Sequence record: MZ311865.1
Source of the DNA: Escherichia phage vB_EcoM_LNA2
DNA length: 64,000 bases
Direction: 5' to 3' (one strand)
Below are positions 17,327 through 62,372 of this stretch, in pieces; position 1 is the first letter of the stretch; each line of letters begins with the position of its first letter. The notes under the pieces were generated by a model that saw only the letters and a list, made by a program, of their open reading frames with translations, ran no database searches and was not told the DNA's origin. Both the position numbers and the translations under genes were made by a program.

Positions 17327-17362
17327 GCTAATTTCCTCAATTGATTAATGTTTTTGTAATCC

Positions 17363-17396
17363 ATGAGAGCATTATACTCTGCTCTCAAGAGTTTGT
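17363..17396 (-). repeat. 34-bp exact repeat, copy 1 (promoter-hairpin module)
   Basis: atgagagcattatactctgctctcaagagtttgt identical to 62096..62129; contains inverted repeat GAGAGC/GCTCTC around the -10. Confidence 0.7.
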
Positions 17397-17399
17397 ACA
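17371..17399 (-). promoter_or_regulatory. early promoter (TGTACA-N17-TATAAT) upstream of ndd
   Basis: Minus strand TGTACAaactcttgagagcagagTATAAT; -10 lies in loop of 6-bp stem. Confidence 0.45.
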
Positions 17400-17402
17400 A
17401 TT

Positions 17403-25444: not shown

Positions 25445-25485
25445 GTTGTCTCCTCGTTATGAAGGTATTCTATCATCCGAAATCT

Positions 25486-25507
25486 AAAGCAAAAAGGGCC
25501 GAAGCCC
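25486..25507 (-). terminator. short UUCG hairpin + U-run
   Basis: Plus GGGC-CGAA-GCCC preceded by AAAAA; minus strand hairpin then TTTTT. Confidence 0.4.
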
Positions 25508-25951
25508 TTATTTAAATTTAATTTTCTGAAGTGCATCAATTGCAGCTAAACGCCCTTGTTCACTTTTAACTGTAATGACCACATCGCCTGATACGATCAC
25601 CGAACCATCAACAAATTCTATAGAGCCTTTTTTGAAATCGACAGCTGTATCTGGTTCCGGAACTTCTTCAAAGAATTTAAATTCTGCACCATAAATCAGA
25701 ATATCACCTTGCATACTAATGATTGTACGTCTAGGTCCATCGGTTTCAGCGGCAATCATTGAAACACCATAACCAATCATCTCTTCTACAATAAAATCTC
25801 TTGATAATAAAACTGTATGCAGAGTAGTGTTAAGACGTTTACCAGTTGTATTAAGAATTCTCAAGAAATTATCTTCTTGACCTTTGATAATACGATATTT
25901 CTTACCAACTTCAAAACCTTTAAAACCTTTAAAAGCCGTATTAAAAGCCAT
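25508..25951 (-). CDS. hypothetical early protein
   Basis: 147-aa ORF downstream of gene 39. Confidence 0.5.
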   Translation of the reverse strand: MAFNTAFKGFKGFEVGKKYRIIKGQEDNFLRILNTTGKRLNTTLHTVLLSRDFIVEEMIGYGVSMIAAETDGPRRTIISMQGDILIYGAEFKFFEEVPEPDTAVDFKKGSIEFVDGSVIVSGDVVITVKSEQGRLAAIDALQKIKFK

Positions 25952-28371: not shown

Positions 28372-28402
28372 ATTATACTCCATCCATCCTTGGATGTAAA
28401 AC
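28372..28402 (-). promoter_or_regulatory. T4-type early promoter (TTTACA-N17-TATAAT)
   Basis: Minus strand GTTTTACatccaaggatggatggagTATAAT. Confidence 0.5.
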
Positions 28403-28403
28403 A

Positions 28404-28898
28404 TTAATTAAGAATATTAACTACTGCACTACGTGGAACAACACTAAAATCACCAGCATGAACAACGTTAATAAGTTCAACACCATCTTCAATCCACTGG
28501 TCAGTTACCCATCCACTCACTGGACCTGCGAACGGACGTCGAATTGAAACGGCTTTACACAACAAATCAGTAGGCTCAATAGGCTTAATCAGAGTACCGT
28601 ACATACAAGCGATGTCCATATCAAAGTGGAGACCATCTTTAACAGGTGCTTCTTCAATCAAGAGTTCAAAGTCGGTGCTCGGAAGGGCAGTAGTAGAAAT
28701 TGTACCGTATGAATTTTTAATTTCTAAGAATAACCAAGGGCCTTCAACTTGTTTGATGAAGTTAACAATAGTGAAACTATTACCTTGAGTGGCACCTAAA
28801 ATTTCACAAAACTTTTCATAAGCTCGCACTGAAGCACCGTACCAATTGATTTGTTTTTCGTCTTTCAGGATGTAAGTAGCCGTAGTATTGATATTCAT
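28404..28898 (-). CDS. paralog family member C (164 aa), unknown function
   Basis: C-terminal SGWVTDQWIEDGVELINVVHAGDFSVV aligns with paralogs A/B. Confidence 0.55.
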   Translation of the reverse strand: MNINTTATYILKDEKQINWYGASVRAYEKFCEILGATQGNSFTIVNFIKQVEGPWLFLEIKNSYGTISTTALPSTDFELLIEEAPVKDGLHFDMDIACMYGTLIKPIEPTDLLCKAVSIRRPFAGPVSGWVTDQWIEDGVELINVVHAGDFSVVPRSAVVNILN

Positions 28899-28929: not shown

Positions 28930-28959
28930 ATTATACTCCAACCATCCTTGGTTGTAAAC
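28930..28959 (-). promoter_or_regulatory. T4-type early promoter (GTTTAC-N18-TATAAT)
   Basis: Minus strand GTTTACaaccaaggatggttggagTATAAT; spacer near-identical to promoter 28372-28402. Confidence 0.55.
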
Positions 28960-28964
28960 TGCTT

Positions 28965-29642
28965 TTATCGCTGTTTTACACTTAACGGGTCAGGATTCTC
29001 AGGGACATCTTCAAGGCCAAGCGCATAACGCTGAGCATATTTTAACATCAAAATATCTTTAGCACAATCATGAATACTATCATGGGCAACGAATCCTTTT
29101 AGCGTACCCATCGGTAATGGACACATACTTAATCCTCGTGTCAACGAGTAAGCTTCGATTGCTGTACGAATATCACGTTGAGCCCAGAATTTAACCGGTT
29201 CTAATTTATCAGTATCAATATCTGGTTCAAGAACACCTTCATCACGATAGAGGTCACGAATCAAATCGACCAAGATTGGGAAGTCAAAGCTCATACCACG
29301 GCACCACATCTGTGATTTCCATTGGTCAACTTTATTAGCTCGACAATAATCTAAAAAGATTTTAATGCCTTCAAGCGTAGTGACATCGTCTTCAGACGGA
29401 GCCAAGTTTTTACGCGCTTCAGCAGATTGTTCTTTCCACCATTTCATAGTGGATTTAGCGAAAACTCGCTTCCCTTTCTGAGAAGCTAAATTAAATTTAA
29501 TTCGCTTACCTCGTTGAACAAGGTCTTCAAATGATTCAACAACTTCTGGGTCGGAATTATATGCAATAACCGCAAGGTCAATAACAGCCGCTTTTGATGT
29601 ATTGCCGAATGTTTCAAAATCTATAATAACATCAGTGCTCAT
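28965..29642 (-). CDS. dexA: exonuclease A (DEDDh 3'-5' exonuclease)
   Basis: 225 aa; N-terminal IIDFETFG Exo I motif; position upstream of dda as in T4. Confidence 0.8.
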   Translation of the reverse strand: MSTDVIIDFETFGNTSKAAVIDLAVIAYNSDPEVVESFEDLVQRGKRIKFNLASQKGKRVFAKSTMKWWKEQSAEARKNLAPSEDDVTTLEGIKIFLDYCRANKVDQWKSQMWCRGMSFDFPILVDLIRDLYRDEGVLEPDIDTDKLEPVKFWAQRDIRTAIEAYSLTRGLSMCPLPMGTLKGFVAHDSIHDCAKDILMLKYAQRYALGLEDVPENPDPLSVKQR

Positions 29643-50272: not shown

Positions 50273-52984
50273 TCAAAAATCGAACATATCGAACAGAGAT
50301 GCTTTCTTCTCGTAATCGAGTTTCGCTGCTGATGTGAATCCTTCAAGTGGTTTAATAAATGTCTTCTCAAGGAGAACAGTGTAGTCCATCCAATGAAGTA
50401 CATCGTCTTTAATTAAATCTGTGATTTCAGTACCAGAAGGCCATGCGATACATTTATCACCGAATGGGTTTCCTTCACGTAAAGGCAGAACATATACTTT
50501 TTCACCTTCTACAACTTGTGGTGCATCGATATTACCTTTGATAGCCCGGTTATACGTCAGAATTCCACGAATATGGAACGGGCATTTAGGACCAGGGAAT
50601 CCACCGACGTCATATTTAGCAATGTTATTCGCAGAAGATACCGACGCGATGCTAATATAATTCAATTGACGGAATTCTTTTTCAAACTCTTTAAAATATT
50701 CTTGTAATGATTCTTCACCTTCTTGAAGCATACGACGAATACATTCTTTAAGAGCTTTCTGTACTGCTTTAGGAGTCGAAGATTTCTGAGTCTCTAGACC
50801 CATGATTTTGAGTTTAGGCTCAGCGTAACGAGTACCTTCCATATCCCACACGTTTAATGCATAACGTTTCTTACCAGTCCAAAATCCGCCAATACCTTTA
50901 GAACCGAGTGGAGGCCCAGCGATAGCTTCTCGGTCCATGAACATTAAGTGTTGTTTATTGTTCATGTATTCACACATTTCACGGAAACCTCTATCAATAG
51001 CAGGTTCCATACGTTCATGTGCAAACTTATCTAAGAAGTCTACCCAATGGTTGGTATCACGGAATTTAGATTCACCAACCTTATCAATAATTTTATCTGC
51101 AGATACGTAAATGGAGTCTGTATCACCATATAGAACGAAAGCTTCACCTTCTGTACCACAAACTTCATTCAGATATTCATTAACTTTACGTTCAATCCAC
51201 TGTAAAGCCATTTGCCCGAATGTTGTGATTGCAGTAGCATTACGCAAATCATAATAACGGAACCAAACGTTTCCAAGTGCACCATAAAGCGAGTTGATGA
51301 GCAATTTACGGTTAATCTGTGCAGTCATACCTGCAACTTCAGTACGTTGAGCTCTAAACAACATTTCATTAAGAGATTTAGCAGACAACTTTTTAATCTT
51401 TTCTTTAATCTCGTCAGTGAAGTCGAAACGATAATCAACATCTAATGGTTCGTCAACAGAAAGATTAGGATTATGCAATGCCTCTTTAATTATTTCACCA
51501 TTACGTTGAGCTGCAAGCATGTAACCTTTATGTTCTTTACGTTGATTAAAGACCTTAGTGATTTCAGTTGGAACTACACCATCACGGTCTTTATAATACA
51601 TCATGCCGTTAGGAGAACAACTGTACACATCAGAAGGACGTTCAGCAACAGCGTTAATATAATCATGCAATGGAGCTACTTTAAACGTTCCTGCTATTGT
51701 TTCTGGGCTAATATTCACTTGGCGAATGATGCTTGGATACAGAGATGTAAGGTCGAAACTCATTACATATTTGTATCGATTTGGAATAGGTTCCTTAACA
51801 AAAGCGCCAGGATAAGGTTGAACCGGGTGAGAACGACCTTGTGGAATCACCTTGTTCTGCTCTTTAAGGCTATTAAAAATAATAGCATCCCATGTTTTAA
51901 TTGGACTAAACACAGATTGAATCTGTATCTTAGCATAATAACCCATGTCCAAACTCAAGTTGATGAACTGACGCTTAGCATCAATTTGCAATACACGATA
52001 CACGTCGATAATGTTATAAGAAATATATCGTTGGTGATTGCTTTCACGAAGCTTAGAAATAGGGCCGTCATATTTCAGTTTACCAACGTTCAATTCAAAT
52101 TCTGAAATGTAATCCAGAGAATACGACGGTTGATTGGTAAAAGAGAATTTTTTGTAAAGGTCAATGTAATCAAGAACAGAGATACCGAACAATGTAATGA
52201 TTTCACGAGAACCATACATGTTTTCGATAACTTTAACACGAGTTTTACGATGTGGTGATAAACGTTTCGCAGTAGATTCGCCAAAAATATTCTTGATTCG
52301 GTTATACACATATGGAATATCAAATGACTCAACGTTCCATCCAGTCAAAATGACAGGAGTTTTCTGTTGCCAGAAGTTGAGATATTCCATCAACAATTCT
52401 TTTTCGTTATCGAACGGCATATAAATGATTTTATCGATAATTTCAGATGGAACTTCATCACCACCTTGTTCTTGAAGTTTAGCAGCGATTTCAATAGACC
52501 ATTCTTCTACATTACCGTATGGAGAATTCAATAGATCAAATACGTAGAACCTGTCGTCAATTGAGTCATAATGGGTGATAGCATCAATCGGATGTTTTGC
52601 TTGTGACGGCTCAGGGAACCCATCTGGAGATGTTACTTCGATGTCGAAGTTAGCCACACGAATTTTTGTATGGTCGTATTTGATTTCATAGTTATAAGTG
52701 TCAGACAAATACGCCAATTTGAAATCGTCCATGCCAAGTGCTTCAAGTCCGATATCTTCCATGCGTTTAATCCATTGGGAGGCATCACGCATATTAGCGA
52801 ACAACTTACGAGTACACGGCTTACCGTAGATATCGAAATATTTCGTAGCCTGACTTTCCGGACAATGAGCAAACAGTGATGGTTTATATTCTACTTCACG
52901 AGTACGTTCACGGCCATTAGAATCGATGTAACGTTCAAAAATTGAATCACCAATCTGTTCAACCGTTAAGTAAAATTCTTTCAT
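50273..52984 (-). CDS. 43: DNA polymerase gp43 (family B)
   Basis: 903 aa; MKEFYLTVEQIGDSIFERYIDSNGRERTREVEYKPSLFAHCPESQATKYFDIYG... matches recalled RB69 gp43; exo DIE and pol YGDTDS motifs. Confidence 0.95.
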   Translation of the reverse strand: MKEFYLTVEQIGDSIFERYIDSNGRERTREVEYKPSLFAHCPESQATKYFDIYGKPCTRKLFANMRDASQWIKRMEDIGLEALGMDDFKLAYLSDTYNYEIKYDHTKIRVANFDIEVTSPDGFPEPSQAKHPIDAITHYDSIDDRFYVFDLLNSPYGNVEEWSIEIAAKLQEQGGDEVPSEIIDKIIYMPFDNEKELLMEYLNFWQQKTPVILTGWNVESFDIPYVYNRIKNIFGESTAKRLSPHRKTRVKVIENMYGSREIITLFGISVLDYIDLYKKFSFTNQPSYSLDYISEFELNVGKLKYDGPISKLRESNHQRYISYNIIDVYRVLQIDAKRQFINLSLDMGYYAKIQIQSVFSPIKTWDAIIFNSLKEQNKVIPQGRSHPVQPYPGAFVKEPIPNRYKYVMSFDLTSLYPSIIRQVNISPETIAGTFKVAPLHDYINAVAERPSDVYSCSPNGMMYYKDRDGVVPTEITKVFNQRKEHKGYMLAAQRNGEIIKEALHNPNLSVDEPLDVDYRFDFTDEIKEKIKKLSAKSLNEMLFRAQRTEVAGMTAQINRKLLINSLYGALGNVWFRYYDLRNATAITTFGQMALQWIERKVNEYLNEVCGTEGEAFVLYGDTDSIYVSADKIIDKVGESKFRDTNHWVDFLDKFAHERMEPAIDRGFREMCEYMNNKQHLMFMDREAIAGPPLGSKGIGGFWTGKKRYALNVWDMEGTRYAEPKLKIMGLETQKSSTPKAVQKALKECIRRMLQEGEESLQEYFKEFEKEFRQLNYISIASVSSANNIAKYDVGGFPGPKCPFHIRGILTYNRAIKGNIDAPQVVEGEKVYVLPLREGNPFGDKCIAWPSGTEITDLIKDDVLHWMDYTVLLEKTFIKPLEGFTSAAKLDYEKKASLFDMFDF

Positions 52985-53044
52985 TTAATTTCCTTTAGAC
53001 GAGTTATTGTCTTTTGTTTGTTGATGAACTTATTATACTCCAAA

Positions 53045-53060
53045 TGGGACCGAAGTCCCA
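53045..53060 (-). promoter_or_regulatory. UUCG hairpin between regA and gene 43 (terminator and/or gp43 translational operator element)
   Basis: Plus TGGGAC-CGAA-GTCCCA; lies 61 nt upstream of gp43 ATG on minus strand, followed by TATAAT-like box. Confidence 0.4.
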
Positions 53061-53065
53061 TTGCT

Positions 53066-53434
53066 TTAATTACCAATTGTATATTTTGCTTTCAAAGTCC
53101 AGTCATCTTTCTGTTTAAAAGAGATGACACGGAAGTTATTAGTCAGGCCAAACAGATCTTCACGAGCAGAGTCTTCAATAACAATCAAGCCCCAGTCTTC
53201 AAGCAACTGAGCAATCGAATCACGTCGCTGATAGTCTTCACCATCAATATCAACCTGCCGTCCATCCATACGCAACATTTCTTTAAAGTGGACGATGTAG
53301 TATTTACCTTGCTTTTGGAGGATATGACAGGACTGATAAAGGACTTTATCCTTGTTATTAGCGATGCCCATACGGGTCAGAGTCTCTTTGACTTTCAGAA
53401 AATCTTCGGGGTTCTTCAATTTAATTTCGATCAT
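53066..53434 (-). CDS. regA: translational repressor RegA
   Basis: Track ORF 53066..53443; start ATG 53432-53434 gives 122 aa MIEIKLKNPEDFLKVKETLTRMGIANNKDKVLYQSCHILQK... matching recalled T4 RegA. Confidence 0.85.
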   Translation of the reverse strand: MIEIKLKNPEDFLKVKETLTRMGIANNKDKVLYQSCHILQKQGKYYIVHFKEMLRMDGRQVDIDGEDYQRRDSIAQLLEDWGLIVIEDSAREDLFGLTNNFRVISFKQKDDWTLKAKYTIGN

Positions 53435-59625: not shown

Positions 59626-59670
59626 ATTATTTCCTCATTAGTTAATTCATTTTATCATCCGTTTATAAAG

Positions 59671-59697
59671 CAAAAAAAGGAACTCCGAAGAGTTCCT
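59671..59697 (-). terminator. intrinsic terminator (UUCG hairpin + U-run) upstream of gene 47
   Basis: Plus A7 then AGGAACTC-CGAA-GAGTTCCT; minus strand hairpin then TTTTTTTG. Confidence 0.5.
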
Positions 59698-62066: not shown

Positions 62067-62095
62067 ATTATTTTCCTCGGTTATTTTATTATCCA

Positions 62096-62129
62096 ATGAG
62101 AGCATTATACTCTGCTCTCAAGAGTTTGT
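62096..62129 (-). repeat. 34-bp exact repeat, copy 2 (promoter-hairpin module)
   Basis: Identical to 17363..17396. Confidence 0.7.
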
Positions 62130-62132
62130 GCA
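62104..62132 (-). promoter_or_regulatory. early promoter-like element (TGCACA-N17-TATAAT)
   Basis: Same -10/hairpin as ndd promoter; -35 diverges just outside the repeat. Confidence 0.4.
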
Positions 62133-62372
62133 TTATTCCGTGATAAGATAATGTAAATAGTTTGCTTGACGAACACTGATATCAACACCCATATCAAAGA
62201 TACCTTTATAGAACGGGTATTTGTTTTCAGTAGAATCTAGACTAAAAGCCTTTCCACCACAACTAACGGTAATAGCATCAGTTAAAGTGTCATATACAAA
62301 CTTAATAGTTGAGCCATTCACTACGACTTCAAGACGTTTTTTCGATGTAATAACGTCTAATTCTTGTTCCAT
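62133..62372 (-). CDS. hypothetical protein
   Basis: 79-aa ORF. Confidence 0.4.
   Translation of the reverse strand: MEQELDVITSKKRLEVVVNGSTIKFVYDTLTDAITVSCGGKAFSLDSTENKYPFYKGIFDMGVDISVRQANYLHYLITE

Follow-up and report, generated by a model that had tools for sequence, protein, structure and literature searches.

The spacer between regA and gene 43 in the phage analysed here raises the question of which of its elements is the site through which the DNA polymerase controls its own synthesis, and what the remaining elements do. The system is a classic one, in which a replicative DNA polymerase autogenously represses its translation and which became the first SELEX target; our analysis leaves this picture unchanged. 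The translational operator of T4 gene 43 was reportedly described by Andrake et al. in 1988, and is said to have been the target of the first SELEX experiment, that of Tuerk & Gold in 1990. An initial annotation of the window, by which we mean the whole 64-kb stretch of DNA that was analysed (64,000 nt), had singled out a UUCG hairpin in the spacer and proposed that it serves as the gp43 operator, as the regA terminator, or as both. The biology of operator, promoter and hairpin at regA-43 is all already known. We consider it very probable that the spacer of this phage consists of three separate elements of previously described kinds placed in series, namely the UUCG hairpin, a promoter and the gp43 operator. 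The evidence presented comprises sequences, identity to RB69, folds, stem covariation and positional conservation.

The window derives from an RB69-type phage of the genus Mosigvirus. A 301-nt region around the spacer (52900-53200) has matches in 158 phage records, in all of which regA followed by the gene 43 DNA polymerase is annotated; it is 100% identical to Shigella phage SHSML-52-1 and 99.3% identical to Escherichia phage RB69. From 91 nt upstream of the gene 43 ATG through the first 12 nt of the gene (-91 to +12), RB69 and the window are identical. The gene 43 product matches the RB69 DNA polymerase chains 1clq, 1ih7 and 1waj over its full length (residues 1-903, 2093 bits), and regA is found by tblastn in 2365 phage records. 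The open reading frames, the RB69 annotation and the match to the RB69 polymerase chains show that the initial assignment of regA and gene 43 was correct. Since the spacer and the polymerase are the same as in RB69, publications on RB69 are directly applicable to the window. Read on the minus strand, the order of the spacer is TAA AGC AAUGGGAC-UUCG-GUCCCAUU U GGAG UAUAAU AAGUUCAUCAACAAACAAA AGAC-AAUAACUC-GUCU AA AGGA AAUUAA AUG (Table 1). An Rfam scan of 52800-53300 with E values up to 10 returned chance matches only (best E 1.4, far below the gathering scores), and neither of the two spacer hairpins matched a curated family. The records AF158101 and NC_000866 carry no promoter or terminator features in the regA-43 spacer.

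Table 1. Features of the regA-43 region, with positions in the window; hairpins, promoter and operator are predictions.
Feature	Position	Strand	Basis
regA, translational repressor, 125 aa	53443..53066	-	ORF list; homologous RB69 CDS annotated RegA
regA stop codon TAA	53068..53066	-	sequence
UUCG-tetraloop hairpin AAUGGGAC-UUCG-GUCCCAUU, 8-bp stem	53062..53043 (core 53060..53045)	-	sequence and fold
GGAG and TATAAT, -10 box of the gene 43 promoter, T4 P43 homologue	53041..53032 (TATAAT 53037..53032)	-	exact match
gp43 translational operator hairpin AGAC-AAUAACUC-GUCU, 4-bp stem, 8-nt loop	53012..52997 (loop 53008..53001)	-	RB69 identity, fold, covariation
Single-stranded 3' part of the operator, equal to the RBS: AAAGGAAAUUAA and AUG	52996..52982	-	sequence; review on RBS overlap
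gene 43, family-B DNA polymerase, 903 aa, the repressor itself	52984..50273	-	homologous RB69 CDS annotated gp43 DNA polymerase

The expectation that the interval 52985-53065 holds the gp43 operator was borne out, in the form of a second, weaker hairpin that the initial annotation had missed. It occupies positions -28 to -13 relative to the AUG (13-28 nt upstream), with 2 nt between the end of its 3' arm and the SD sequence AGGA (52994..52991), which precedes the start codon at 52984..52982. We take its loop, AAUAACUC, to be the wild-type loop of Tuerk & Gold 1990. According to a review of post-transcriptional control in T4, the gp43 operator consists of a hairpin and a stretch overlapping the ribosome binding site; the hairpin measures 18 nt in T4 and 16 nt in RB69, with UAAC in its loop, the UAAC loop was the predominant sequence selected in the first SELEX experiment, and gp43 binding and autogenous translational repression have been reported for both RB69 and T4 (PMC3014915). 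We adopted the operator boundaries from this review. The hairpin in the window has the published RB69 length of 16 nt and the UAAC-core loop, and is identical to that of RB69. The element as a whole (53012..52982) lies in the gene 43 leader and reaches the RBS, contains the 16-nt hairpin with the AAUAACUC loop, is homologous to an experimentally mapped operator and combines stem compensation with a constant loop. We therefore have high confidence in predicting that this hairpin is the gp43 translational operator, retained from RB69 without change.

Taken alone, the operator hairpin is of low stability: its folding energy is -2.2 kcal/mol, and 12 of 200 shuffled sequences were as stable. It is the only structure predicted in the inferred leader, and it is also present in the minimum-energy fold of the whole spacer. 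No other AAUNACYY loop in the 64-kb window combines a flanking stem with a downstream SD sequence and start codon. The octamer AATAACTC occurs at two other places, 17961 and 31862; both were rejected, having neither a flanking stem nor an RBS, and three occurrences are the chance expectation.

A comparison of related phages shows how widely the operator is retained and on what its recognition can be based. The comparison set consisted of 76 loci, 15 from annotated T4-like phages and 61 from IMG/VR contigs found with an alignment of gp43 N-terminal sequences; a single protein query had returned 2 IMG/VR loci, and the 12-sequence alignment query returned the 61. The loop motif AAU[ACU]ACU[CU] is present at most 40 nt from the gene 43 ATG in 53 of the 76 loci, which represent 19 distinct 24-mers. 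The stems that enclose it differ in sequence while pairing is kept (AGAC/GUCU, AGUC/GACU, GUCC/GGAC, GACC/GGUC, AGCC/GGCU, AUUC/GAAU and GGUC/GACC). Among 17 distinct stem sequences, 89% of the cells pair, whereas column shuffles give 60%; double changes are present in four of the five pairs, and the covariation score is 0.83 versus 0.26, a value that none of 500 shuffles reached. Sliding the 3' arm in register lowers pairing to 20-47%. The loop columns are invariant except for position 4; as the sequences had been selected by the loop motif, the stem test alone is unbiased. RNAalifold, applied to an unanchored MAFFT alignment of the last 48 nt, returned the same 4-bp helix with three compensatory pairs. 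The operator can thus be recognised by its conserved loop together with its covarying stem. The loop motif is absent from the Krischvirus (RB49-like), Pseudotevenvirus and Angelvirus loci of the set, which is consistent with the remark in the review that some T4 relatives have other loops or no autoregulation (PMC3014915).

Some of the operators compared have a loop that deviates from that of RB69. Upstream of gene 43 in Serratia phage PS2 (locus L049, 460-475), the operator position is occupied by GUCC-AGCAACCU-GGAC, and the leaders of Serratia phages Muldoon and SP1 and of Cronobacter phage vB_Cdu_VP8 are 91-94% identical to the PS2 leader. At locus L055 (460-476), GUCC-GAGCAACCU-GGAC is found at the operator position. 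When the full text of papers was searched for AAUAACUC and AGCAACCU, all matches were to siRNAs or primers and unrelated. In the first SELEX experiment, AGCAACCU was reportedly selected as the "major variant" loop alongside the wild-type AAUAACUC. The PS2 lineage would accordingly make natural use of the SELEX "major variant" loop. This touches on a question left open in the 2010 review, namely whether any phage has the -CAAC- variant naturally (PMC3014915).

The comparison with mapped operators is closest for RB69 itself (Wang, Pavlov & Karam 1997; Petrov & Karam 2002, via PMC3014915), in which the 16-nt hairpin, the AAUAACUC loop and the position beside the SD are all the same; the cognate polymerase of the window is essentially the RB69 protein, and no difference between the two operators is detectable. 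The T4 operator hairpin, AGCCU-AAUAACUC-GGGCU (18 nt), is found at the homologous position and has the same 8-nt loop, the same location in the leader and the same order of promoter and then operator. It differs in having a 5-bp stem (AGCCU/GGGCU, -5.2 kcal/mol) instead of the 4-bp stem of the window (AGAC/GUCU), and in the 10-nt spacer (AUAAACUA...) that separates the hairpin from the SD, whereas the hairpin of the window abuts the SD. In addition, the T4 hairpin lies 3-4 nt from the mapped transcription start, compared with about 14 nt from the inferred start in the window.

The promoter lies between the two hairpins. Where a TATAAT-like box had been noted, the sequence is an exact TATAAT, which corresponds to a sigma-70 -10 element and is followed by the A-rich leader; most of the Tevenvirinae compared have kept GGAGTATAAT or a close variant upstream of gene 43. 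The start of the T4 middle promoter P43 is given as 29933 (Hinton 2010, Table 1, PMC2988021), a position that precedes the gene 43 ATG (29893) by 40 nt and the operator hairpin by 3-4 nt, and follows the homologous TATAAT at a distance of 5 nt. By analogy, the gene 43 mRNA of this phage would start at about 53027-53025. Since the UUCG hairpin lies upstream of the P43-homologous -10 box, it should by homology be absent from the promoter-proximal gene 43 mRNA. The same homology suggests that the promoter is of the middle, MotA-dependent class. The consensus of the MotA box is (a/t)(a/t)(a/t)TGCTTtA, and 12 +/- 1 bp separate it from the -10 box downstream; the best match in the spacer of the window, TGGGACTTCG, agrees at 5 of 10 positions, lies 13 bp from the -10 box and is located inside the UUCG hairpin. 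MotA tolerates deviations from its box, and because the box is weak here, we infer the promoter class from T4. In phages of the Karam, Moon, Gelderland and Jiaoda types, MotA boxes that match at 7-9 of 10 positions (TTCTGCTATC, TCATGCTATT and TTTTACTTTA) are located between the GC-rich hairpin and the same -10 box, at 11-12 bp from the latter, and the predicted layout would be hairpin, middle promoter, operator and gene 43.

A MotA-box/-10 pattern is also present on the plus strand at 53062-53087 (TGCTTTA-N11-TATATT), directed antisense into regA. It overlaps the regA stop and the TAA(A)GCAA sequence that is conserved before the UUCG hairpin in many lineages; its -10 part lies within regA codons, and the pattern as a whole is lost in phages with an inserted ORF at this place. 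This pattern may be a coincidence.

Transferred to the window, the mechanism described for T4 and RB69 would operate as follows. Transcription from the TATAAT would start about 5-7 nt downstream of the box and yield a leader of approximately 42 nt that does not include the UUCG hairpin. Free polymerase, not engaged on DNA, would bind the AAUAACUC loop and the single-stranded 3' flank AAAGGAAAUUAAAUG, and the bound 100-kDa protein would block entry of the 30S subunit, given that the operator hairpin ends 2 nt from the SD, and so repress its own translation. Engagement of the polymerase on primer-template DNA would release the mRNA, which would then be translated; according to a review on the replication proteins of T4 and RB69, gp43 cannot bind specific RNA and DNA at the same time (PMC535899). 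The repression steps are taken from the T4 and RB69 literature, and what the window itself displays is the same cis element and the same protein.

The UUCG hairpin has a different character. It is present where it had been reported: its core reads TGGGAC-TTCG-GTCCCA on the minus strand (TGGGAC-CGAA-GTCCCA on the plus strand), and between the 3' end of the core, 53045, and the A of the gene 43 ATG there are 60 nt, a difference of 61 positions. The hairpin starts 4 nt past the regA TAA and has a stable GC-rich stem with four GC pairs among its 8 bp. As RNA, it folds with -11.1 kcal/mol, compared with -3.4 +/- 1.8 kcal/mol for shuffled sequences (z -4.3; none of 200 as stable). Being the most conspicuous structure of the spacer, located upstream of gene 43 and having a core that, coincidentally, is also 16 nt long, it had been taken primarily as the hairpin of the gp43 operator. 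We regard this interpretation as highly improbable. The published T4 and RB69 operators have an 8-nt loop containing UAAC (PMC3014915) next to the RBS, whereas the loop here is UUCG and the distance of 60 nt to the AUG is too large for occlusion of the RBS. Moreover, the -10 box that corresponds to the one behind the mapped P43 start in T4 is located downstream of the hairpin, the window contains at least 12 hairpins of the same type beside unrelated genes, and in relatives the loop at this site varies, in contrast to the constant operator loop. A perspective on the tetraloop also states that CUUCGG loops are bound by no proteins (PMC4371310). Comparison with the T4 and RB69 operators places the operator hairpin at 53012..52997, not at the UUCG hairpin.

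It should be noted that a scan ranking hairpins by stability picks the wrong element here, because the operator stem has only 4 bp and a folding energy of -2.2 kcal/mol. The practical value for annotation is that the operator of an RB69-type polymerase is the inconspicuous AAUAACUC hairpin abutting the RBS rather than the eye-catching UUCG stem-loop.

The UUCG hairpin of the regA-43 spacer represents a general class of intergenic elements, the C(UUCG)G hairpins, which were first described in T4 mRNA (PMC4371310). The stem-loops of this type in the window, numbering at least 12, are located on the same strand, most of them with T-runs after the stem, next to unrelated genes. Compared with intrinsic terminators and with the C(UUCG)G hairpins found between cistrons in T4 mRNA (Tuerk et al. 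1988), the hairpin in the spacer has the same GC-rich stem and C-UUCG-G loop, and the same location after a stop codon with U residues following; its U-tract is shorter (3 U), and termination at this hairpin is probably partial. We have moderate confidence that the hairpin acts on the 45-44-62-regA transcripts as a leaky terminator or attenuator, as a stabiliser of their 3' ends, or as both; most likely, it would attenuate transcripts of the 45-44-62-regA cluster or protect their 3' ends. The proposal that it is the regA terminator is therefore a better reading than that of an operator, although the U-tract speaks against its strict form: only three U (53044..53042) follow the stem before GGAG, which falls short of the U-rich tract of an intrinsic terminator. 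A scan for terminators on the coding strand (at least 5 T in 8) missed the hairpin, which was called on the plus strand only; the U-tract on the minus strand is too short for a call. Efficient termination is doubtful for these reasons. A literature search for data on termination at T4 regA-43 yielded nothing usable.

Nearly all relatives have a GC-rich hairpin followed by T residues at the same site, located after whichever ORF precedes gene 43, which is either regA or a small inserted ORF. Both the stems (GGGAC, GGGGC, GGGCC, GGGAG, GGAGCC, AGGCC and GCGGG) and the loops (UUCG, UACG, UCCG, GAAA, AAC and CGAA) of these terminator-type hairpins vary, while the operator loop is constant. Pair counts give 96% paired with double changes in 8 of 8 pairs, figures that are inflated by the use of a hairpin finder to pick the set, and which mainly reflect positional conservation of a variable stem-loop. 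An ORF of 54-79 aa is inserted between regA and the hairpin in Gaprivervirus, Dhakavirus, Moonvirus, Tequatrovirus wV7 and Karamvirus (L002, L003, L004, L006 and L010), and is absent from T4, RB69 and the window. In the loci of the Gapriver, Dhaka and wV7 types, the right-hand junction of the insert is at the conserved TAA(A)GCAA, just 5' of the hairpin. In Escherichia phage EcWhh-1 (L003:1289-1308, an UNVERIFIED record), the stem is that of its Dhakavirus relatives and the loop is reverse-complemented, with CGAA for TTCG, as would follow from inversion of a palindromic hairpin or from an assembly artefact.

The short U-tract may also be explained in another way, namely that the hairpin is not a terminator but mainly a barrier to 3' exonucleases after readthrough or processing, or a nucleation site for folding. 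The three U followed by GGAG, the missing terminator call on the coding strand and the exceptional stability conferred by the UUCG tetraloop are in line with this explanation. In addition, the GGAG on the 3' side of the hairpin is similar to the core of RegB cleavage sites, and cleavage there would place the hairpin at a new 3' end. However, in T4 and most relatives the tails 3' of the hairpin are more U-rich (UUAUUU, UUUU), and the record of a Salmonella phage has an annotated terminator at the equivalent site. Of the 7 positions that follow GGAG in the RegB consensus GG*AGRAYARAA, the sequence directly 3' of the hairpin, GGAGUAUAAUA (53041..53031, minus strand), matches only 5, and GGAG itself belongs to the promoter-proximal TGGAGTATAAT that is shared with early promoters in the window. 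We consider the barrier explanation rather unlikely. As TGGAGTATAAT is also found in two early-type promoters, the conservation of GGAG is explained at least equally well by promoter function, and together with the partial consensus this led us to reject GGAG as a conserved RegB site. RegB cutting at the GGAG of readthrough transcripts, which would leave the hairpin as a protective 3' cap, is a possibility.

The two promoters in question, of the T4-early type (GTTT(T)AC-N18-TATAAT), are located on the minus strand at 28426..28372 and 28984..28930. They share GGATGG(A/T)TGGAGTATAAT with each other, and the TGGAGTATAAT part also with the gene 43 promoter region.

The position of the weak MotA match inside the hairpin raises a further alternative, in which one sequence would be used twice: as RNA, the hairpin would end or stabilise the transcripts of the regA cluster, and as DNA it would form the -30 region of the gene 43 promoter. 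In its specific form, CTTC would supply the CTT core of the degenerate MotA box TGGGACTTCG, 13 bp from the TATAAT. Both the general and the specific form appear improbable to us. In favour of such use, the centre of the 10-mer is ACTT, as in T4 P46, its distance to the -10 box is 13 bp, and T4 P43 is listed as MotA-dependent with no other candidate box. On the other hand, only 5 of 10 positions match, the T4 alignment gives a spacer of 15 bp, outside 12 +/- 1, and the CTT is lost in the inverted loop (CGAA) of EcWhh-1. Furthermore, the good MotA box of other lineages is downstream of the hairpin, and UUCG loops are common in the window without promoters. The hairpin loop was therefore rejected as the P43 MotA box, on account of the 5/10 match, the wrong T4 spacing and the loss of CTT in EcWhh-1, and is kept as a low-probability alternative only. 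If double use were true, termination upstream and activation of the polymerase promoter would be physically coupled in a single 20-bp sequence.

Our preferred reading of the UUCG hairpin, that of a leaky terminator or 3'-end stabiliser placed before the gene 43 promoter, has parallels in other phages and elsewhere in the window. In RB49 and phi1, gene 43 is bordered by PeSL cassettes (Arbiol et al. 2010, PMC2839356), which likewise combine a stem-loop terminator with a sigma-70-type -10 element in a short intergenic region. They differ from the spacer of the window, which lacks an early-type -35 sequence (GTTTAC) and whose T4 promoter homologue is middle and MotA-dependent. In the window, TGCTTYA-N11-13-TANNNT has 12 matches compared with 2.0 expected, a six-fold enrichment that none of 100 shuffles reached, and two of the UUCG hairpins, at 59697..59678 and 25509..25494, run straight into this motif. 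The combination of a UUCG hairpin and a following MotA-box/-10 motif, that is, of hairpin and middle promoter, is thus a recurrent cassette in the genome.

The two cassettes extend over 59697..59649 and 25509..25467 on the minus strand, and consist of a UUCG hairpin with a T-run followed by TGCTTTA-N11-12-TA(A/G)AAT; their arrangement of hairpin and middle promoter is the same as that upstream of gene 43 in other lineages. A cassette of another type, caaactcttGAGAGC-agagtataat-GCTCTCat, is found on the minus strand at ~17400..17360 and ~62135..62095, upstream of two different genes. It has a 6-bp stem whose loop is the -10 box, and is similar to one subclass of PeSL, that with overlapping stem-loop and -10 (PMC2839356).
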